64,000 nt of DNA from an uncultured Candidatus Saccharibacteria bacterium (GCA_964507855.1 CAZDQS010000001.1:230121-294120); one strand, 5' to 3'; shown: positions 4,317-44,205, numbered from the stretch's first letter. A program made the numbers and translations. The notes: a model not told the origin generated them from the sequence alone.

Positions 4317-6560
4317 TCAATTGCCGTAACGAGAAATCACGATGCTAAGGTCAATACCGTTGATACTTCCGTTGCCGTCCAGGTCGCCATTACCTGAGGT
4401 CTTGCCATAGTTTCTGAGCACAATATTTAGGTCGGTAGCATCGACGTGGCCGTCTCCATTGACATCGCCGCTGTATTCTTGGGGCGGTGGTGTAGTGGTG
4501 TCAGGGTAGGATAATTCGTAGTAGCGGGGAAGTTCGACCTCTTTGAGCGCAGTAGGAGTGGAGAAGTCAAATTGCGGTATTGTTGTTACTTTGCCGGTAC
4601 CGTCAATTTTGTAGGCGCTACCGTCACGGCGCTGGACCTCGATGAGCATACCCGGCTGTAATACCGACAGGTTGAAATCGCTTGGCTCGAGGTCGCGTGT
4701 ACCATTGACGAGCACGCGGATAAATTGATGATGCAATGGGTGGTTGGGGTTGTTCTTTTCGTTGATGGCGATTGGTTCCAGTCGTGATCCGCCCACCCAA
4801 GAATCTTTGACGACGCGAGGGTGTTTGCCGTCTGCATTGCCACTGCCCAGGAGTACTGAATGGTCGTTGACCCCATTGGCATTAAACACGACCCGTTCGT
4901 AGCGCTGGTAGAAGCCGTTTGCGTCAGGGGCTTTGGAGTTAGCGACAAACTCTATGTCCATCTTGGCGTTACCAAATGTGATTGAATCCTCGTGGGCGTA
5001 TGAGTTGCTGTAGGCGCCTTGCCGGATGCCCTTGTTGTTGTGGTAGTACGCAGCGTGCTTGATGACTGGCGGTGGCCCGACGTTAGACCAGATAAAGGTA
5101 CCAAGCGCGGCGTTATTGTGGGATATGGTTCGCTCTTGTTCCCATTCACCGAAGTCTGCGGACGGTGTCCACCAGATGCCGGAAGCGTCTACCGTGCCTT
5201 GGACGCCGACGGCTACGGAGTCACGTAGCATAAGGCCGGTGCCCTTGGTCAGCTTAAAGCCGGTGACCGTAAATTTATCGCCGTTTGGATCATCAATGTC
5301 CGGGCCGCCTGGTGATACCTTGGCAGCGACAGCTCGCTCATAGGTTATGTCGTGGCTCTGCTCTTCTACTCCTTGATCCCACCAATATGCATCAGCCTGG
5401 ACGTCAAAGGCTATGGTGTTACGGAACGTGATACCATGGCTGGCGTGGGCCACGAAGGTGTGCGAGCCAAAATCGCGCCCGACTACGCCTTCTACGATAG
5501 AGCCGCGGCTGCCATCCATAGCATGGTGGAAGTGAATACCCCAACGACCTAATATTTTGCCGTCTTCACCAGGCTTGCCTTCTCTCCAGACCTGGAATTT
5601 ACGTGGTCCGAAGTGCCGGGCGGTGAAATATTTCAGACTTTGCGGCTTGGTAGAGCGCATGAACAAGTGCGAGCGCTTGCCGGGAGTCCCCTCGATCCGG
5701 ACATTCCGTGAGAGGTTGAGGACTTCGGCTGTCCACTTGTTGTTTACTTTGGGGTGGGGATATGACACGCCTTGGTTGAGAGTTATGGTCGCACCGTTGA
5801 CAGCAGTAATGGTTCGCGTGTCAAAGCTTTGGGTGTAGGATCTGTCATCTGGGTTGCCTGGATCTGGTGATTGAGTCGGCGTAATGGTGATTTCGTCGCC
5901 AACTTGCCAGCCTACCGGGGCATTCTTAAGTGTAATTTGGGTTGCTCCCTGCGGTATGCTCTCCGCTGCCCAATCCCACGAAGTTTTGGTGGTGCCGTGG
6001 ATGTCCAGTTCGCCATTGCCCATGACCCACACGCCAACGTCATCCGGTATGGGATCCATGCCGCCGCCAACTACTTTATTTTCGTCAATATTGACTAGCT
6101 GGATAAAGTGTTCGACATCTGCGCTCGCCGGCCGCATGACCATTGTGCCTGTAATAATGATGTTACGTTCGGTAATTAACTTTACGTCTTTGTTGGGCGC
6201 AAATACCAATGTGCCCATCACATGCATTTCGCCAAGTGTTGGGCTTTGCGGGAGGTCGTAAGTGACGGTGTGGTTGGTGTTGATGCCTATGGTTTCCCCG
6301 GCTTTGGGGACTTGACCGGTGCTCCAGACACTCGCGTCACTCCAGTTGCCGCTCTTGACGGTCGTGAGTGAAAAAGCAGCTCGAGTAGAAGCAACCCAAT
6401 ATCCGATACCGGTTGCGACTGTCAGTACAAATAGTAGAGTTATCAGGCCATAGTGGCGCCGAGACCAGGATGGTGATCGTGGTAGCAAGCCAAAAGCCGA
6501 CTGTGTTTGTCTGCCGGAGCGTGCGTTACGCCTGCGCTGCGGGCCTGTGTTTATGTTCAT
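4317..6560 (-). CDS. Membrane-anchored/secreted G8-domain, beta-helix protein with C-terminal type I dockerin repeats
   Basis: ORF 4317..6608. ATG at 6560 (MNINTGPQRRR, AAGGA 8 nt upstream) preferred. TM helix LITLLFVLTVATGIGYWV. G8-like start SGNWSDASVWSTGQVPKAGETIGI. C-terminal GDVNGDGHVDATDLNIVLRNYG..GDLDGNGSINGIDLSIVISRYG is a dockerin pair. Confidence 0.65.
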   Translation of the reverse strand: MNINTGPQRRRNARSGRQTQSAFGLLPRSPSWSRRHYGLITLLFVLTVATGIGYWVASTRAAFSLTTVKSGNWSDASVWSTGQVPKAGETIGINTNHTVTYDLPQSPTLGEMHVMGTLVFAPNKDVKLITERNIIITGTMVMRPASADVEHFIQLVNIDENKVVGGGMDPIPDDVGVWVMGNGELDIHGTTKTSWDWAAESIPQGATQITLKNAPVGWQVGDEITITPTQSPDPGNPDDRSYTQSFDTRTITAVNGATITLNQGVSYPHPKVNNKWTAEVLNLSRNVRIEGTPGKRSHLFMRSTKPQSLKYFTARHFGPRKFQVWREGKPGEDGKILGRWGIHFHHAMDGSRGSIVEGVVGRDFGSHTFVAHASHGITFRNTIAFDVQADAYWWDQGVEEQSHDITYERAVAAKVSPGGPDIDDPNGDKFTVTGFKLTKGTGLMLRDSVAVGVQGTVDASGIWWTPSADFGEWEQERTISHNNAALGTFIWSNVGPPPVIKHAAYYHNNKGIRQGAYSNSYAHEDSITFGNAKMDIEFVANSKAPDANGFYQRYERVVFNANGVNDHSVLLGSGNADGKHPRVVKDSWVGGSRLEPIAINEKNNPNHPLHHQFIRVLVNGTRDLEPSDFNLSVLQPGMLIEVQRRDGSAYKIDGTGKVTTIPQFDFSTPTALKEVELPRYYELSYPDTTTPPPQEYSGDVNGDGHVDATDLNIVLRNYGKTSGNGDLDGNGSINGIDLSIVISRYGN

Positions 6561-7300: not shown

Positions 7301-7338
7301 CCAATGAAAAAGCCCCACCGTTGGTGAGGCATTTTCAT

Positions 7339-7497
7339 TGGAGGGCCCACTGGGATTCGGTCACCTTTGGCGACCCCGGAACTTCACGATTGGCAGCGTA
7401 GCTGCCATCGGAAGATTCCCTTGCGACATGTCACCGGCACGTCTCACCCAGGACACGCGCACGCGTCCTGATTTTGTATCTCGAGTAAGTGCTCCAC
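7339..7497 (-). repeat. Partial tRNA-Lys copy (12 nt + 21 nt exact) split by an 86-nt three-hairpin core (type I module)
   Basis: 7446-7457 and 7339-7359 are identical to tRNA-Lys positions 7552-7563 and 7530-7550. The 86-nt insert at 7360-7445 is homologous to 42316..42434 and 34866..34972. Confidence 0.6.
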
Positions 7498-7498
7498 G

Positions 7499-7523
7499 AA
7501 AAAACTCCACACAAGGTGGAGTT
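7499..7523 (-). terminator. Rho-independent terminator after tRNA-Lys(UUU)
   Basis: Minus strand CTCCAC CTTGT GTGGAG followed by TTTTTT. Confidence 0.7.
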
Positions 7524-7529
7524 CATTCG

Positions 7530-7606
7530 TGGAGGGCCCACTGGGATTCGAACCCAGGACACGTGGCTTAAAAGGCCACTGCTCTAACCAACTGAGCTAT
7601 GGGCCC
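7530..7606 (-). tRNA. tRNA-Lys(UUU), CCA encoded
   Basis: Minus strand GGGCCCA TA GCTC AGTTGGTTA GAGC A GTGGC CTTTTAA GCCAC GTGTC CTGGG TTCGAAT CCCAG TGGGCCC T CCA; clean cloverleaf. Confidence 0.95.
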
Positions 7607-7718
7607 ATGATGAGACAAACCTACGGTTTTTCTCATCGCTCGTCGGCGAAGCCGAGTCGCTGAAGCGACCAAGCTCGCTGCTCTTTTCCCCTTAAGCGAG
7701 CTTCCGAAAACTCCGTAT

Positions 7719-7747: not shown

Positions 7748-7807
7748 TTTCTCTTGTAGCCAAGTTTATGATTGGCATTTATAAAGTATATTAACTATTA
7801 TTCAGGT

Positions 7808-9244
7808 ATGGAAGGTCTGATTCATCATAAGTTCCGGCGCACGACACTGATTTCGGTGGGGTTGGCGGCATTCTTGCTTGGACTTGTCGCTGCTCGGCAT
7901 GTGGTGGTGCCCGGCTTCTCTTGGCTGTTTTTGCTTCTGCCCTGTGTCGTGATAGTGCGCCGGAAGACGTTGGTTGCGTTGATGGCGGTTTGTCTCATTG
8001 GCCTATCACTCGGTGTGGCGCGCGGTAGCACGGTGATGGTGGCGGTGTCCGAATACCAGCAGTTCTATAATCAGGAAATTGCGGCGCAGGGTGTGGTGAT
8101 TGATGATCCGGTGTATGACGATAATGGGCAATTTGACTTTCGGGTGGGCCGCGTTAGGATTGATGACACAAAACTGCCGGGCCAGGTGCGGGTACGGGGG
8201 TTTGTCACTGATATCCGTCGTGGTGATGCGGTGCGGGTGGCGGGGAGGCTGCAAGACGGGTTTGGCAATTACCAGGCGGAAGTGCGGTTTGCTGATATAG
8301 CTGTTGTCAGCCGGTCGGGTAGTTGGCTGGAGAAAACCAGGCGGGAATTTTTTGCCTCTACCTATAATGTGTTGCCTGAGCCTCAAGCGAGTTTGGGTTT
8401 GGGGTTTCTGGTTGGCTTGCGTTCGGCGCTGCCGGAAGATTTTGATGAGCAGTTGAGGATTGCCGGACTGACGCATATAGTCGTTGCATCCGGCTACAAC
8501 TTGACTATTCTCGTGCGATTGTCCCGGCGGCTTTTGGTCAAGCACTCCAAGTATCAGGCCTTCATGGGTTCCGTGCTGCTCGTATTGGGGTTCTTGGTTA
8601 TTACGGGCGCTAGTCCGTCAATTACGCGTGCGGCTGTCGTGACGCTGCTCAGTCTCGGGGCATGGTACTACGGGCGACGGATTCATCCGATACTGCTGAT
8701 TTTACTCGGCGCGGCGCTGACAGCTGGGGTCAATCCGCTCTTTATCTGGCATGACCTTGGCTGGTGGTTATCGTTCTTGGCATTTACCGGTGTGTTGGTG
8801 CTCGCGCCGTTACTAACGAAACGTTTATGTGGAGATAAGCAGCCAAAGTTGCTTGCGCAAGTGGCTATTGAAACAATTGCCGCGCAAGTTATGGCGACGC
8901 CACTTATCATGTTTGTATTCGGTGAATTTTCCCTTGTGGCGCTGCTTGCCAACCTGGCGGTTGTGCCATTTATCCCGCTAGCGATGTTGTTTACTTTTGT
9001 TGGCGGCTCGGTCGGGTTCGTCTCGCCGGTACTTGGCAGTTGGTTGGCGTTGCCTGCGCAGTGGGTTCTTGGATATATCGTCTCAATTACCCGGCTGCTC
9101 GCCTCGCCCTCGTGGGCACAGCAGTCTGTTGCGCTAGGTGCCGGCGGTCTTGCTGTTTTGTATGGGGTGGTGGCTATGGTGGCTGTTGTTTTGTACCGCA
9201 AGACAAAGCTTCGATTTCACCACGTGCCGGCTGTCGTCGAATAG
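7808..9244 (+). CDS. comEC: ComEC/Rec2 DNA-uptake channel (DUF4131 + competence domain, no C-terminal metallo-beta-lactamase domain)
   Basis: ORF 7772..9244. ATG at 7808 lies 6 nt after TATTAT. Many TM helices; GLTHIVVASGYNLTIL and SPSITRAAVV blocks are typical of ComEC. Confidence 0.8.
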   Translation: MEGLIHHKFRRTTLISVGLAAFLLGLVAARHVVVPGFSWLFLLLPCVVIVRRKTLVALMAVCLIGLSLGVARGSTVMVAVSEYQQFYNQEIAAQGVVIDDPVYDDNGQFDFRVGRVRIDDTKLPGQVRVRGFVTDIRRGDAVRVAGRLQDGFGNYQAEVRFADIAVVSRSGSWLEKTRREFFASTYNVLPEPQASLGLGFLVGLRSALPEDFDEQLRIAGLTHIVVASGYNLTILVRLSRRLLVKHSKYQAFMGSVLLVLGFLVITGASPSITRAAVVTLLSLGAWYYGRRIHPILLILLGAALTAGVNPLFIWHDLGWWLSFLAFTGVLVLAPLLTKRLCGDKQPKLLAQVAIETIAAQVMATPLIMFVFGEFSLVALLANLAVVPFIPLAMLFTFVGGSVGFVSPVLGSWLALPAQWVLGYIVSITRLLASPSWAQQSVALGAGGLAVLYGVVAMVAVVLYRKTKLRFHHVPAVVE

Positions 9245-34723: not shown

Positions 34724-34842
34724 TAGGAGTCTAATTATATCATATTTACATTTTATATCCACATTACTAACAGAGGTAGCTTTTTGCAAGAAAATACGGT
34801 ATAATTTTCCAGTCGTATCCCTTATTGAAGGGAAAAGAGCAG

Positions 34843-34865
34843 CGGGGATTGGCGCAGTTGGCTAG
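34843..34865 (+). pseudogene. Orphan 5' 23 nt of tRNA-Pro (acceptor 5' strand + D arm)
   Basis: cggggattggcgcagttggctag is identical to 35017-35039. Confidence 0.8.
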
Positions 34866-34972
34866 TGTGAGAACTGCCAGTGGCAGTTCGGAAACGAATC
34901 TTCTCTTGCAAACTTGTTTGCAAAGATGAAGTTCGGGGGTCGCGGAACGTGACCGCGGGTACCGCGCGCAGA
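34866..34972 (+). repeat. Type I three-hairpin module fused to the tRNA-Pro 5' fragment
   Basis: TGTGAGAACTGCCAGTGGCAGTTCGGAAACGAATCTTC[TCTTGCAAA CTTG TTTGCAAAGA]TGAAGTTCGGGGGTCGCGGAACGTGACCGCGGGTACC. Collinear with 42316..42434 and 7360..7445(-). Confidence 0.6.
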
Positions 34973-35016: not shown

Positions 35017-35093
35017 CGGGGATTGGCGCAGTTGGCTAGCGCGCGCGGTTTGGGACCGCGAGGTCGGAGGTTCGAGTCCTCTATCCCCGACCA
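35017..35093 (+). tRNA. tRNA-Pro(UGG), CCA encoded
   Basis: CGGGGAT TG GCGC AGTTGGCTA GCGC G CGCGG TTTGGGA CCGCG AGGTC GGAGG TTCGAGT CCTCT ATCCCCG A CCA. Confidence 0.95.
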
Positions 35094-36751
35094 CGTTCGA
35101 AATTTTTAGATTTAAGGAACTCTGCATAGGGTTCCTTAAGTTTTATATCGACTACTTTCCATCTGGTAATCTTGTTTTTTGGTGGTACAAATTCACCCTC
35201 TACAACAAGGTTCGAGATGAACTTTTCAAGGATTTTATTAAAGACCGTAACGCTCGTTGTTGACCGAAGTAAATCAGCTACATTATCGAATAGTTCGAGA
35301 TACTTTTCGTAAGTAGGTATGACAGTCTTCAAACGTTCTCGTTCAGCTTTAGCAATTTTATGAGCGTTCCTGAGTCTCTTTAGTTCAGCCCTGTAATCTT
35401 TCAGGTCTTCTTTGTAATGCTCTGCCAGCTCCTTATCTTCACCTGATACTATTAGCTTGGCTCTATTGTAATCACGTTGTGTATCTGTAATTTGTTTATT
35501 CAATGAACTGATTATGGAATAAAGCTGTCTAAGTCGAGCTTCTCTACTCTCTGCTACTTCTACGGCATAATTATCATAGTTGCTCTTAGTTGTGAAACGG
35601 TATTTATCTAGGTAGTCGATTGCATAGTCTGTAATCACTTTAGCTCTAGGTCCCTTGTCTTTCATAATACAACCGTCTGTCTCGCACCTATATCGGTAGT
35701 AGTTGACATCTTTCTTAACAGTGATGCCCGAAGATAAGGATTTACCACAAGCCTTACAGAATACTTTTCCAAGCAGAAGGTTGGCTTTTACTTGATCGGA
35801 GGGGGCTGTTATCGATGACTTAAATTTACTCGACATAAAGTCTTTGGCTTGATTGATTTTCAGGAAGTCTTCGGCACCGATTGCAGGTGTAAATCCATAC
35901 TTCTCGATTATATTGACGACACCACCACTGTATCTAATTATTCCTGCATAAGTCGGGTCGCTTAAAATATTGGAAACACTGTCTTTATCCCACTTATATG
36001 CAAAATGACCATCTTGTTTGTATTTGAATACTCTGTAATCACTTCTACCGTTCAAGTAACGCAAAATGTTAGCCTGAGACTTGCCCTCAATACGCATGTC
36101 AAAAGCATGCTTAATAATATTGTAGTTTTCGCCATCAGGGTACAGTTTGCCTTTCTCGGTTTTTAGATACCCGTGCAAAAAGCTACGCAAGAACTTGCCA
36201 CTAAGCGTCTTACGTTTGTTCCCACGAGTAACTACTTCACTCTGGTGTTCTGAAAATTGTTTAGCAAGTACGAAGGACATGCCCAGCAACATCTTACCTG
36301 CTGGATTGTTTTCAAAAGTTGATGTGGCGAAACGTAAATCTTTGATAATACCCTTGTCGAGCAGGTCTATGATTTCGCCAGCTTCTTTCATGTTTCTTGC
36401 AAGCCTGTCGGGGTGATACGAGATTATGCCGTCGTACTTGCCACTAATGACATCATCAAGCATCTTACGAAATAAAGGACGTATATCAGGCTCTTTAGCT
36501 GAACCATCCTCTTTAATAATGTCATTCTCGTCAAGTGATATACCGTCATATCCGACTACTCGTTCTTTACATTCGGCTATCTGGTCTTCTTTAGATTTTG
36601 CTTGCCGAGTTTCGTCAGTCGTTGATTTACGAGCATATAAGACATAGCGCAGGTTTTCTGGTTTGTAGAACTCCTCCTCAGCTTGAGTAGAGGATTGTAG
36701 CATTTCAAAGAGTTGTTCAAGAGGAGTACTGTTTGGTGCTAAGTCTGACAT
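35081..36751 (-). CDS. Large serine recombinase (resolvase catalytic domain + recombinase domain + zinc ribbon + coiled coil)
   Basis: YVLYARKSTTDE (catalytic Ser), ..HPDRLARN.., CKACGKSLS..YYRYRCETDGC zinc ribbon, long C-terminal coiled coil. The last 4 codons and stop lie inside the tRNA-Pro 3' end. Confidence 0.9.
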   Translation of the reverse strand: MSDLAPNSTPLEQLFEMLQSSTQAEEEFYKPENLRYVLYARKSTTDETRQAKSKEDQIAECKERVVGYDGISLDENDIIKEDGSAKEPDIRPLFRKMLDDVISGKYDGIISYHPDRLARNMKEAGEIIDLLDKGIIKDLRFATSTFENNPAGKMLLGMSFVLAKQFSEHQSEVVTRGNKRKTLSGKFLRSFLHGYLKTEKGKLYPDGENYNIIKHAFDMRIEGKSQANILRYLNGRSDYRVFKYKQDGHFAYKWDKDSVSNILSDPTYAGIIRYSGGVVNIIEKYGFTPAIGAEDFLKINQAKDFMSSKFKSSITAPSDQVKANLLLGKVFCKACGKSLSSGITVKKDVNYYRYRCETDGCIMKDKGPRAKVITDYAIDYLDKYRFTTKSNYDNYAVEVAESREARLRQLYSIISSLNKQITDTQRDYNRAKLIVSGEDKELAEHYKEDLKDYRAELKRLRNAHKIAKAERERLKTVIPTYEKYLELFDNVADLLRSTTSVTVFNKILEKFISNLVVEGEFVPPKNKITRWKVVDIKLKEPYAEFLKSKNFERGRG

Positions 36752-37013: not shown

Positions 37014-37646
37014 ATGAAACTCCCCGAAATTAGAATTAGCTTTGCTTGGTTGCTCTTTTATGGCGAATCACAATCCTTAGCTGAAGCTCACGACTTTAAG
37101 CTTGAGTCATACGACCATTATGACCAAAAGACGGCAGAGTACAGAAAGGCTTGGAAGAAGCATGAGAAACAAATAATTCACGGGCTTCAAACATCATTGG
37201 GAGTGGAATTCTATAAGCCTGTTATTGACGTAAGTTGTACACCTTATTTCATACCAAAAAGTGATCCGCTAATTATGAACTTCAAGGAAACGCCTGACCA
37301 GTTTATTGACGTTTTGACCCATGAGCTTTGCCATGTATTGCTTACGGACAATAATAAGCACCAGAGTAATGGTGAAAATCCTAAAATGGATTTGATTGCA
37401 GTATGGAAGAAGATGTTTAACGGCGAAAAAGACTTCAATGTACTAGCACACATTCCAGTTCACGCTCTATGTAAATATATTTACCTTGACGTGCTTAAAG
37501 AGCCTTCACGATTAGAGCGAGATAAAAAAGCTGTAGAGGAATGGGACAATAGTGGTGCTTACAAAACCTCATGGGCTTACGTGGAAAGTCACGACTATAA
37601 GGAAATTATTGAAAAGCTAAAAGAATCTTACGAGGTACATAAATAA
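37014..37646 (+). CDS. Hypothetical HExxH-motif protein (possible zinc metallopeptidase)
   Basis: DVLTHELCHVLL. ATG at 37014 lies 6 nt after TGtTATGAT. Confidence 0.5.
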   Translation: MKLPEIRISFAWLLFYGESQSLAEAHDFKLESYDHYDQKTAEYRKAWKKHEKQIIHGLQTSLGVEFYKPVIDVSCTPYFIPKSDPLIMNFKETPDQFIDVLTHELCHVLLTDNNKHQSNGENPKMDLIAVWKKMFNGEKDFNVLAHIPVHALCKYIYLDVLKEPSRLERDKKAVEEWDNSGAYKTSWAYVESHDYKEIIEKLKESYEVHK

Positions 37647-38266
37647 TGTCTCTACCATGTGATATTGTTTTGCTGCCCTCAATAGAACTAGCGAACAAGG
37701 CTATTGAAGCTAGTAAAGCAACCAATAAATACGAGAGCTTCTTCACGCTAGAAGATGGTAAGTTCTATCCCCACATGTCTCTGTATATGTTCCAGCTTGA
37801 TGAGACTGATATATCTAAGGTCGAAGAAGTACTTACAAGAATTGCTAATGATACGAAAGTTATTACAGCTAAGGCAACAACTTACAGTTTGGGTACAGGG
37901 TTTGGTGTTGGTTATGTTGATCCTGAGTACGAAGTAACTGAAGGACTAAGCAGCTTACAAGATAAAGTAGTAGAAGCGGTCAATCCAATTCGAGCAGGTA
38001 TGCGTGAAAGTGATATTAAGAAAATGCAGGACGCCGAAGGTATTAAGCTGGAGAATCTACAAAAGTATGGGTATCCAGCAATCGGTGAATTGTTTAGACC
38101 CCACATTACCCTTACTAGATTGAAAGAACATAATCCTAAGGTCTTAGAGTTATTACCGCAGGATGTAACTTCATTTAGTGGTGTCTTTGATAGACTAGGG
38201 TTATTTGAAATGGGCGAGAACGGCACTTGTATAAGGAAAATAGCAGAATTCCCACTCTCAAATTAG
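37646..38266 (+). CDS. 2H phosphoesterase superfamily protein (LigT / cyclic phosphodiesterase-like)
   Basis: Two HxS/TL motifs about 105 residues apart: YPHMSLYMF and FRPHITLTRL. Start overlaps the upstream stop (TAATG). Confidence 0.65.
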   Translation: MSLPCDIVLLPSIELANKAIEASKATNKYESFFTLEDGKFYPHMSLYMFQLDETDISKVEEVLTRIANDTKVITAKATTYSLGTGFGVGYVDPEYEVTEGLSSLQDKVVEAVNPIRAGMRESDIKKMQDAEGIKLENLQKYGYPAIGELFRPHITLTRLKEHNPKVLELLPQDVTSFSGVFDRLGLFEMGENGTCIRKIAEFPLSN

Positions 38267-42225: not shown

Positions 42226-42302
42226 GCCCCGGTAGCTCAGCTGGATAGAGCAGAGGACTTCTAAGCCTAAGGTCGTAGGTTCGAATCCTACCCGGGGCGC
42301 CA
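42226..42302 (+). tRNA. tRNA-Arg(UCU), CCA encoded, weak anticodon stem
   Basis: GCCCCGG TA GCTC AGCTGGATA GAGC A GAGGA CTTCTAA GCCTA AGGTC GTAGG TTCGAAT CCTAC CCGGGGC G CCA. Pairs 27:43 and 31:39 are mismatched. Confidence 0.7.
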
Positions 42303-42315
42303 AGATACGATATCA

Positions 42316-42434
42316 AAGGTTGGGGTGAGACATGCCGGTGGCAGGTCGCAGGGCAATCTACTCTTCAAAACTTGTTTTGAAAGATGTAGTTGCGGGCCCG
42401 CCGGTAGGCGGGTCGAGTCCCTCCCGGGGTACCA
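42316..42434 (+). repeat. Type I three-hairpin module inside a degenerate tRNA-Arg-like 3' third
   Basis: AAGGTTGGGGT[GAGACATGCCGGTGGCAGGTCGCAGGGCAATCTAC..TGTAGTTGCGGGCCCGCCGGTAGGCGGG]TCGAGTCCCTCCCGGGGTACCA. The track ORF covering this region is an artefact. Confidence 0.6.
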
Positions 42435-42439
42435 GAATT

Positions 42440-42982
42440 ATGCAAGTAGTATTCGTAACCGGTAATCAGAATAAACTCCAGGAGGCCCAGGCGATTTTGC
42501 CAGGGCAGCTTACCTCTGAGAAACTTGACCTGACCGAAATCCAGAGCCTTGATATCGAGGAAATTGTCAGGCATAAGCTAAAAGAGGCGTACGCCATACT
42601 AAAGAAGCCGGTTATTGTCGAGGATGTCAGTGCTGAACTCGCTTCCCTGAACGGTCTGCCCGGGCCGTTTGTGAAGTTTTTTGAAGAGCGGCTGGGGAAG
42701 GGCGCGCTGCATAAACTCAGCAAAGTCGAGCATGATCGCGTGACGATTACGTGCTGTGCCGGATACTTCGATGGCGAGCGCGAAGAGATAGTGAAGGGTG
42801 TTATTGAGGGAACAATTGTGCCGCCGCGGGGTGAGGATGGGTTTGGCTTTGATTTTGTGGTCGTGCCAGACGGGCATACAAAGACCATGGCCGAGATGGG
42901 CCGGGCTGAGAAAAACACCCTGAGTCACCGGTATGTGGCATTTAAAATGCTTGCCAAAAAACTCAAAATGAATCAAGCTTAA
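42440..42982 (+). CDS. rdgB: Non-canonical purine NTP pyrophosphatase RdgB/HAM1
   Basis: MQVVFVTGNQNKLQEAQAIL.., GLPGPFVKFF, FGFDFVVVP, SHR. Confidence 0.9.
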   Translation: MQVVFVTGNQNKLQEAQAILPGQLTSEKLDLTEIQSLDIEEIVRHKLKEAYAILKKPVIVEDVSAELASLNGLPGPFVKFFEERLGKGALHKLSKVEHDRVTITCCAGYFDGEREEIVKGVIEGTIVPPRGEDGFGFDFVVVPDGHTKTMAEMGRAEKNTLSHRYVAFKMLAKKLKMNQA

Positions 42983-44111: not shown

Positions 44112-44147
44112 GTGAAAGTGCCGGTCTTTATGGCCGGCTTTTTCACT
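44112..44147 (+). terminator. Terminator hairpin after tRNA-His
   Basis: AGTGAAAGTGCCGG TCTTTATGG CCGGCTTTTTCACT. Confidence 0.6.
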
Positions 44148-44196
44148 GGGTAATGCGAGGGGGATTTGAACGGGAGCAACCCGGAAGGGTGTCTTT

Positions 44197-44205
44197 TGTT
44201 ATGAT
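44197..44205 (+). promoter_or_regulatory. Extended -10 (TGtTATGAT) 6 nt before the ATG at 44212
   Basis: tgttatgat, then gggtgc, then ATG. Confidence 0.45.

Follow-up and report, generated by a model that had tools for sequence, protein, structure and literature searches.

REPINs and REP sequences, which RAYT transposases move, and PATEs, the short palindrome-associated derivatives of IS200/IS605 insertion sequences, are non-coding, multi-copy sequences of ~100 nt in which hairpin structure is kept over sequence. Terminal inverted repeats and target duplications are absent, insertion is specific for strand and orientation and occurs by a short motif, a single distant gene acts in trans to mobilise them, and the copies are long-lived in the genome. 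The non-canonical tRNA introns of archaea (Thermoproteales), for which transposition between tRNA positions has been proposed, reside in functional genes and are excised at a bulge-helix-bulge by the splicing endonuclease. [quoted passage not shown] Full-text literature searches and Rfam yielded no prior description of the element itself.

We analysed a 64,000-nt window from an uncultured Candidatus Saccharibacteria bacterium (GCA_964507855.1, CAZDQS010000001.1:230121-294120), in which a sequence-only reading had flagged positions 42316-42434 as one of several three-hairpin modules embedded in tRNA gene fragments. The results identified the flagged sequence as a copy of an uncatalogued, folded Saccharibacteria element of 88 bases, which is abundant and has no reading frame or coding capacity. 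A degenerate pattern of the first hairpin matched exactly four sites in the window, three of them perfectly (7424-7447 on the minus strand, 34867-34890 and 42325-42348 on the plus strand) and one with 3 mismatches (57683-57706, plus strand), against a chance expectation of 0 (100 shuffles), which confirmed the three full copies and one partial copy first proposed. When scored with a covariance model made from copies of other genomes, the full copies reached 102.7 (Pro), 97.9 (Lys) and 89.7 bits (Arg), and the partial copy, a stub, reached 11.6 bits for its first hairpin only. The module length of ~110 nt given earlier had to be shortened, since the element proper measures 87-89 nt (TGAGA...GTGAC(C)) and the remaining length is tRNA-derived flank. 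Nine tRNA genes were detected in the window by ARAGORN, and by Rfam at gathering threshold, and every copy adjoins an intact one called by ARAGORN, a point that the earlier reading had missed. For the three full copies, the anticodon of the neighbouring tRNA matches that of the copy: tRNA-Lys(ttt) and tRNA-Arg(tct) lie upstream of theirs and tRNA-Pro(tgg) downstream of its copy, while tRNA-Arg(tcg) lies upstream of the stub.

The flagged Arg copy occupies 42326..42414 on the plus strand (covariance-model match 42324-42414, E 1.5e-19) and contains three helices, P1, a long P2 and P3. A truncated tRNA-Arg copy surrounds it: directly 5' lie its variable loop and T-stem 5' strand (aaggttgggg, 42316..42325, plus strand), and 3' follow the rest of the T loop, the T-stem 3' strand, the acceptor 3' strand and CCA (TCGAGTCCCTCCCGGGGTACCA, 42413..42434, plus strand), the final two bases of the element (TC) also serving as T55 and C56 of the interrupted T loop. 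The intact tRNA-Arg(tct) lies 23 nt upstream of the element (42226..42302, plus strand; ARAGORN, and 64.3 bits with the Rfam tRNA model). [quoted passage not shown] The 5' piece matches the tRNA-Arg(tct) T stem of L032 and L096 (...aggtcggggg) and not that of the adjacent functional gene; the fragment has the T stem GGGG/CCCT and the resident gene has GTAGG/CCTAC, shared with L123, so the fragment is old or imported.

The Lys copy occupies 7359..7446 on the minus strand (covariance-model match 7448-7358; fold z = -3.22). On the same strand, the intact tRNA-Lys(ttt) (7530..7606; ARAGORN and Rfam), which lies 83 nt upstream of the element, is followed by its terminator hairpin, whose stem is extended by CCA..TGG pairing (7497..7529), and then by two tRNA-Lys-derived pieces that jointly form one hairpin (7447..7496). 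These are a reverse-complement-like tRNA-Lys 3' third (TGGAGCAC...CAGGACGCG, 7496-7462) and a forward variable loop with the T-stem 5' strand (cgtgtcctggg, 7457-7447), a layout that recurs in 51 loci of the downstream type described below, among the matches listed. On the other side of the element, a forward copy of the 3' T loop, T-stem 3' strand, acceptor 3' strand and CCA (GAATCCCAGTGGGCCCTCCA, 7339..7358) is identical to the adjoining tRNA-Lys, and a second terminator follows this truncated copy (7303..7338; terminator-scan match 7330-7312). The earlier reading had correctly put the Lys and Arg cores in the T loop of a partial tRNA; the insertion lies between T54 and T55/C56 of the 3' fragment.

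The statement that no copy has a 5' acceptor strand did not hold for the Pro copy (34868..34954, plus strand; covariance-model match 34866-34955), which is a "young" variant with the sequence TGAGAACTGCCAGTGGCAGTTCGGAAACGAATCTTCTCTTGCAAACTTGTTTGCAAAGATGAAGTTCGGGGGTCGCGGAACGTGACC. It is preceded by a truncated tRNA-Pro copy that consists of the acceptor 5' strand and D arm to ..GGCTAG plus 2 extra bases, TG (34843..34867, plus strand), and that is identical to bases 1-23 of the tRNA-Pro(tgg) at 35017. Because cggggattggcgcagttggctag at 34843-34865 is a perfect tRNA-Pro acceptor 5' strand and D arm, the insertion point of this copy is the D arm and not the T loop (mapped site p5 = 25). The intact tRNA-Pro(tgg) lies at 35017..35093 on the plus strand (ARAGORN and Rfam), the start of the element being 149 nt upstream of the gene. 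The stub (57684..57711, plus strand) retains the first hairpin and junction only (TGAAGACTGCCAGTAGCAGTTCGTGAAA) and is preceded by aagaggtcggggg, a short variable-loop/T-stem copy that is the sole tRNA piece there. Upstream of it lie, in this order, the intact tRNA-Arg(tcg) (57524..57600, plus strand), a terminator and a reverse-complement-like version of the 3' third of that tRNA.

The element had not been recognised as any named RNA class, and the Rfam check agreed, as no family matched it. A search of the whole window with Rfam 15 at gathering threshold returned nine tRNAs only, and sensitive scans (E <= 10) of three copies returned nothing over the element better than E = 0.15; the sole partial overlaps were YrlA at 15.6 bits (threshold 69) and JPX_2 at 17.7 bits (threshold 48). 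A self-cleaving ribozyme or an intron core was rejected on the same lack of an Rfam match and on size, which is too small.

On comparative sequence evidence, a three-helix structure under constraint is strongly supported. P1 is modelled as an 8-bp hairpin with an NGU loop, P2 as a long bipartite hairpin with a bulged U, and P3 as a 7-8-bp hairpin with a purine-rich triloop; single-sequence folds of the full copies gave three hairpins with z from -1.8 to -3.2. The fixed or unpaired parts are UGA 5' of P1, the UGCC-NGU-GGCA tip, the GNAAR junction, the bulged U and 1-2 G before P3. In a 109-sequence alignment, paired cells amounted to 93.4% under the three-helix model, compared with 24.7-44.2% when partners were slid by 1-3 columns. 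The covariation score was 0.459 (control: ~0.06), two-sided changes were present in 23 of 33 pairs, and the observed pairing and covariation values were attained in 0 of 500 column shuffles. RNAalifold, unaided, returned the same helices with compensation in 21 of 30 pairs. The covariations originally quoted between window copies (CTTC/GAAG versus CTAC/GTAG; GCAAA/TTTGC versus CAAAA/TTTTG) are real and generalise to the 109 sequences, and the swap of the middle hairpin in one copy is equally real. A G·U pair at columns 85-94 was kept in 96 of the 109 sequences, and another G·U in 34. Because the complementary strand would put A·C at the conserved G·U, the fold belongs to the tRNA-sense strand only, as RNA or DNA.

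Further copies, for which a search of other genomes had been proposed, were abundant. A scan of species-representative genomes with the P1 pattern plus the base of P2 returned at least 116 stretches, almost all from Saccharibacteria. Among the matches listed, two were chance matches (L016, L020) and two were short contigs in other bins (L082, L089); the labels were those of MAGs of Saccharibacteria/Saccharimonadia or Patescibacteria, with a few given just as "bacterium". A profile built from 49 copies and run on the listed loci plus the window gave at least 147 matches, at least 136 of them full length. The pattern was absent from 2.9 million viral contigs, and a phage origin was rejected on this result.

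We mapped the insertion sites by aligning the 11 bases 5' of the element to the neighbouring tRNA. Among the matches listed, 62 sites were in the T loop, usually between T54 and T55, 17 in the D arm (after base 17 or 24/25), 6 in the anticodon loop at 37/38 and 1 in the variable loop. Orientation was equally regular among the matches listed, with 118 copies co-oriented with the nearest tRNA and 1 opposite. The base 5' of the element was always G at the mapped sites, and the ends were sharp (G/TGAGA...GTGAC/, where slashes mark the junctions). Junctions in T loops, D arms and nested copies showed no duplicated bases, and 1-2 target bases were lost or shared. Integron-like G/TT crossovers, serine-recombinase dinucleotide crossovers and IS608-like guide pairing were compared with the junctions by eye, and none fitted exactly.

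The host tRNA copies were truncated and adjoined an intact tRNA of the same identity, in two arrangements. In the downstream type (51-56 loci among the matches listed; Lys and Arg in the window), the intact tRNA with CCA is followed by a terminator with a CCA/TGG stem, a reverse-complement-like tRNA 3' third, a forward variable loop and T-stem 5' strand, the element, the rest of the tRNA to CCA and a second terminator that resembles the first. The gap from tRNA to element was 67-93 nt in most of these cases. Family-wide, the forward copy 3' of the element was 80-98% identical to the neighbouring tRNA at all positions but T55, and the acceptor part of the reverse copy kept only ~50% identity; on the latter figure we rejected a tRNA-like gene whose 5' acceptor strand would be hidden. 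In the upstream type (35-39 cases among the matches listed; Pro in the window), the 5' part of a tRNA, with its own upstream region, extends to the D arm, anticodon loop or T stem and is followed by the element, ~10 tRNA bases, often a short T-loop fold-back, an AT-rich stretch and the intact tRNA.

Among the 137 tRNAs of the matches listed, no spare tRNA 3' copy without an insert was found. Seventeen spare copies gave no match to the element pattern; 14 of them held another structured insert of 50-130 nt, and the remaining 3 a divergent or nested copy of the element. The element-bearing tRNA copies were not called as tRNAs by ARAGORN or Rfam, and after removal of the element a tRNA became detectable in 3 of 136 copies among the matches listed (L012, L112 and L094). 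In L012 and L112 an intact tRNA gene lies next door to the interrupted one. In L094 (JACDBH01), the tRNA-Gly(gcc) is complete and has its own TATAAT box; the element splits its T loop, and no further tRNA was present within 8 kb. This is apparently a fresh insertion in a complete gene.

Copies of the element are distributed in ways that are independent of their flanks. One truncated tRNA may hold 2-3 copies in different loops (L043, L069, L113, L058), and at five loci (L065, L085, L098, L103, L113) the element is nested in the third hairpin of another copy, after GGG. L038 and L045, from different species representatives, each hold a copy that agrees with the Pro copy of the window (34868-34954) at 100% or 98.9% identity. 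The hosts of these three copies are the D arm of tRNA-Pro(tgg) in the window, the T loop of a tRNA-Leu in L038 and the T loop of tRNA-Pro(cgg) in L045; similarity stops exactly at TGAGA and GTGACC, and the flanks are unrelated. Genome JAPUFB carries four copies (Lys, Leu, Leu and Gly loci) that are 91-98% identical. The mean identity between copies was 0.73 within a genome and 0.71 between genomes, so most of the family is old.

We fetched syntenic regions with Ham1, which is encoded 3' of the Arg copy. Three related regions (L123-L125) have tRNA-Gly(tcc), tRNA-Arg(tct), the ham1 region and tRNA-His in the same order, with Ham1 only ~58-64% identical, and contain no copy of the element, no spare tRNA copy and no reverse-complement copy; in L123, 38 unrelated bases separate tRNA-Arg from ham1. 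The comparison of occupied with empty tRNA loci, which had been proposed as a check, thus yielded empty syntenic loci in related genomes, and no polymorphism between close strains, as the same-population contigs carrying two window proteins were 100% identical to the window. In the public annotation, ham1 starts inside the element, which extends the reading frame through it. A D-arm copy upstream of tRNA-Gly(gcc) is orthologous in five genomes, with the fold kept by compensatory changes, which hints at selection in place or gene conversion and not pure parasitism.

ORF clustering over the 116 loci among the matches listed (~4-8 kb) revealed no enriched protein family, and in particular no enriched recombinase, transposase or reverse transcriptase; the largest cluster, an ABC ATPase, was present at 12 loci. 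No Y1/HUH transposase was found when 30 window ORFs were compared with Pfam (10 nearest Pro/Arg; 10 near Lys and the stub). A large serine recombinase of 556 aa is encoded on the minus strand at 35081-36751, in overlap with the tRNA-Pro(tgg) 3' end. It has homologues in L045 (32% identical, same arrangement) and L039 (partial), making 3 of 117 sources including the window, and this association with the element is too thin to assign a role. Autonomous longer versions of the element were also sought; the truncated copies in L046 and L059 were simply cut off, with no ORF inside, and this candidate was rejected. No promoter was predicted between the tRNA-Lys terminator and the element, the sole one of the region, ~110 nt upstream, driving tRNA-Lys, and no shared -10 element was present in 56 tRNA-element spacers; an independent sRNA gene was rejected on both results. 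Arrays of units lie behind one tRNA in L091, L046 and L032, and in L080 a 4.2-kb copper-resistance cargo is flanked by two 230-bp units with no integrase.

The element is best explained, with a probability that we place a little above even, as a non-autonomous, non-coding mobile insertion element of 87-89 nt that inserts strand-specifically. The three origins suggested at the outset were partly supported, and the best fit was a miniature insertion element that targets tRNA loops, given the sharp ends, the three kinds of loop, the nesting, the identical copies at non-homologous sites across species and the empty syntenic sites. A distant enzyme or host nucleic-acid machinery would recognise the folded single strand together with a tRNA-type hairpin loop and would join them strand-specifically; the single strand could be lagging-strand-template DNA or RNA. 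Where a cell has just one functional copy of a tRNA gene, insertion into it would usually kill the cell, and counter-selection of such events would leave nearly all copies in redundant truncated copies beside an intact gene. The spare copies themselves, with their forward/reverse-complement/forward order around a palindromic terminator, could arise by two routes, namely an inversion-duplication seeded at the terminator hairpin or a rescue recombination coupled to insertion. That no spare 3' copy lacks an insert points to a coupling of duplication with insertion, in a manner that the mobile-element model leaves unexplained. A version of mobility at the RNA level, which we consider very unlikely, would have the element, as a minimal structured RNA, become part of a tRNA transcript at an exposed loop, either through chemistry of its own or through enzymes that process or ligate tRNA, and then be carried back to the genome; return beside a tRNA gene would proceed by copying and recombination, with the snap-back forward/reverse/forward copies as its footprint.

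The mobile insertion element has to be weighed against larger units and against host functions. The element could be part of a ~200-bp miniature integrative element, or its scar, composed of the tRNA 3' end, terminator, reverse-complement copy, variable loop/T stem and the element, and recombining with the T loop of a tRNA by means of a site-specific recombinase that acts in trans; the tRNA would be regenerated, the old 3' fragment displaced, the element would be the arm by the crossover, and repeats would lead to arrays. We regard this as unlikely, although the forward/reverse/forward layout and the ever-present insert keep it alive. Williams reportedly described the T loop and anticodon loop in 2002 as classic integrase crossover sublocations. 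The gap from tRNA to element is very uniform, the forward 3' copy is close to the neighbouring tRNA, arrays stand behind single tRNAs, the L080 cargo lies between two units in the manner of an island, the T stem of the Arg cassette differs from that of the resident tRNA, and tRNA-Pro is directly adjoined by a large serine recombinase both in the window and in L045. The downstream layout itself reads as a regenerated tRNA plus a displaced 3' fragment, as in island mapping (PMC4383910). The suggestion that the modules are the conserved arm of a tRNA-integrating family shares this geometry, and both meet the same objections. Placed between T-stem 5' strand and T loop, the element interrupts the presumptive core and would destroy the recombinase site. 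Identical copies at different tRNAs and loops, with flanks that match locally, mean that the element moves without the unit, and the nested copies are clean insertions of the element only. RNA-type covariation with G·U is unexpected for double-stranded arm sites, recombinase homologues are confined to the few sources given above with no recombinase family or integrase standing out in the 116 loci listed, and viral matches are absent.

A host-beneficial structured RNA domain, either a small RNA or a cis leader or trailer of tRNA operons, with the attached tRNA pieces acting as processing handle, decoy or pairing partner, would account for the retention of many copies in highly reduced genomes and for a fold held by compensatory change. 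The upstream D-arm copy of tRNA-Gly(gcc), with a peculiar CCTTGCCAGGCCAAGG hairpin common to five genomes, points in the same direction, as do the position of downstream copies between two terminators, their 3' tail that closely mimics a tRNA 3' end, and the position of upstream-type copies in the 5' leader of an intact tRNA. We nevertheless judge it distinctly unlikely, and the sRNA with a tRNA-like 3' end was the least supported of the three original suggestions: the spacers offer no promoter and no conserved -10, the position within the tRNA fragment varies, the fragments decay, the element is missing from the syntenic loci of related genomes, and the same slot is taken by other, unrelated inserts. 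The putative 5' acceptor partner has decayed as well, and with the acceptor complement only ~50% preserved, no tRNA-like acceptor helix is maintained. It is most improbable that the element is a new kind of tRNA intron, removed from RNA so that the interrupted genes are functional. tRNA introns of other lineages also use 37/38 and the T loop, the complete, promoter-bearing tRNA-Gly(gcc) of L094 carries the element with no intact copy within 8 kb, and the boundary G/GUGAGA...AC is loosely like splice-site motifs. However, removal restores a tRNA in so few copies, two of which adjoin an intact twin, and the remaining hosts lack a 5' or 3' tRNA part; Rfam gave no match, not even among its intron families, and 88 nt is far short of the size of a self-splicing intron.

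If the mobile insertion element is the right reading, Saccharibacteria, whose genomes are among the smallest known, carry dozens of copies of a tiny structure-defined mobile element that targets tRNA gene architecture, with apparent recent moves between sites and species. Such an element would explain the many broken tRNA copies and repeat-induced contig breaks near tRNA genes. It would also offer a clean system for studying how a non-coding element recognises a folded tRNA loop on one strand, and the putative enzyme could be a site- and structure-specific single-strand integrase or ligase of practical interest. If mobility at the RNA level were true, the element would represent a new class of bacterial RNA parasite or an intron precursor, specific to tRNA architecture. 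The element flags annotation errors, of which the extended ham1 frame is an example, and can serve as a marker for gene flow among uncultured episymbionts.

Compared with known mobile elements, hairpin elements moved by HUH enzymes (REPINs and IS200/IS605 derivatives) are probably the nearest mechanistic analogues, by resemblance in behaviour and not by membership. Like REPINs and PATEs, the element has covariation-supported first and third hairpins at its ends and no inverted repeats or target duplication. Where those insert at a fixed motif, the element is fixed in orientation (118 versus 1 among the matches listed) and only the preceding G is constant. Its target, unlike theirs, is a tRNA loop and not an extragenic site or a fixed tetranucleotide, and its three hairpins begin 3 nt from the left end and reach the right end. 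It shares with MITEs its small size, non-coding nature, multiple copies and non-autonomy; in contrast to MITEs, its ends (TGAGA.../...GTGAC(C)) are not inverted repeats, no target-site duplication is present, and the inverted repeats around it are tRNA-derived and locus-specific.

Among systems tied to tRNA genes, genomic islands (Islander, PMC4383910) share the intact tRNA and the displaced 3' fragment from T loop to CCA as a direct repeat, and the tandem unit arrays and the one cargo case (L080) are also island-like. Unlike islands, the interval is only ~70-90 nt plus the element, no integrase is nearby, and the element splits the fragment at the presumed crossover and also occurs in the D arm or anticodon loop of 5' fragments and in nested form. 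Related short sequences at the D arm, 37/38 and T loop in sense orientation recall the archaeal tRNA introns, and this analogy suggests that the element, too, spread between tRNA sites. In contrast to them, it resides almost solely in truncated, redundant copies and in a bacterial host, no bulge-helix-bulge was apparent on inspection, and because its hosts are truncated, an archaeal-type spliced intron is unlikely. [quoted passage not shown] Among small hairpin-defined non-coding mobile elements, it has an unusual target, the loops of tRNA genes.

The T-loop slot of truncated tRNA copies held inserts other than X, the 88-nt three-helix folded element. Downstream of tRNA-Lys(ctt), a truncated tRNA-Lys 3′ end followed the terminator (window 62632-62830, plus strand), and its T loop carried, after GGGTTCG, an insert of ~65 nt that had in common with X only TCGCAAG and a AGCTTGCT-tipped hairpin. 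At least three more insert families occupied the same slot in other genomes, one of which, GGGAATGTCCAGTGGACATTCCC..., was present in L008, L017 and L031. Downstream of tRNA-His (window 44112-44200, plus strand), the 3′ third of this tRNA recurred after a terminator as a reverse-complement-like copy (TGGGTAATGCGAGGGGGATTTGAAC...), and neither X nor a forward tRNA copy was present in this region. The syntenic tRNA-His genes of three related-genome loci (L123, L124 and L126) had a plain terminator only. The reverse copy behind the window tRNA-His may be a trace left by a unit since lost.

X was also found inserted into itself. All five inner copies (L065, L085, L098, L103 and L113) belonged to one subfamily, with a first hairpin of TGAGATGAKCC...GGMTCAT and an altered AAUCU region, and each was inserted after GGG in the third hairpin of the outer X. 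This pattern hints either that target choice is written in the element sequence or that the composite form itself has propagated.

Two further observations concern loci from other genomes. In L080, two 230-bp direct repeats (723-952 and 5117-5346), each consisting of a tRNA-Lys end, terminator, reverse copy, X and tRNA-Lys 3′ end, enclosed a 4.2-kb block encoding a CsoR-type metal repressor, a P-type ATPase and two further proteins; the 8-kb locus contained no intact tRNA. In L094 (2720-2880, minus strand), X interrupted the T loop of a tRNA-Gly(gcc) that was complete and had a TATAAT box, and there was no spare intact copy nearby. L094 represents either a recent, lethal-looking insertion, tolerated since every GGN codon is readable by tRNA-Gly(UCC), or a case in which X is removed or tolerated.

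A second conserved element formed the ~95-nt 5′ leader of tRNA-Lys(ttt) (window 7607-7700, minus strand), which read aaggggaaaagagcagcgagcttggtcgc...gatgagaaaaaccgtaggtttgtctcatcat. In L019, from another species, a truncated tRNA-Gly had a near-identical leader, and the first 15 bases of the leader were also found 5′ of the truncated tRNA-Pro (window 34825-34842, plus strand). The leader region gave a weak antisense match (15.8 bits) to the covariance model of X.

The public annotation of ham1 (ITP pyrophosphatase; window 42332-42982, plus strand) gives 216 aa with a start ATG inside X, and ham1 homologues of 177-185 aa favour the start ATG at 42440. The 216-aa call is an artefact of annotation brought about by X. 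Contigs of publicly available short-read assemblies from the window's own population (L117-L122) ended at or near tRNA and X repeats, with ends corresponding to window positions 35064-35066, 7294, 7401 and 7639, showing that the units fragment Saccharibacteria genome assemblies.

Several protein genes of the window were also noted. The ComEC competence channel gene (window 7772-9244, plus strand) adjoined tRNA-Lys(ttt), and the gene for a stand-alone 135-aa GIY-YIG nuclease-domain protein (56508-56915, minus strand) had a tRNA-Arg gene on either side. At 35081-36751 (minus strand), a gene for a large serine recombinase with Resolvase and Recombinase domains had its stop codon within the 3′ end of tRNA-Pro(tgg), and in L045 a 32%-identical homologue overlapped tRNA-Pro(tgg) in the same convergent manner. 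The gene may represent either an integrated element that has been conserved or a recombinase that has been domesticated. A 2H-phosphoesterase/LigT-like protein (DUF1045, 2′-5′ RNA ligase superfamily), for which no connection with X was found, was encoded two genes away from the recombinase, at 37646-38266 on the plus strand. This fold is that of enzymes acting on RNA ends.
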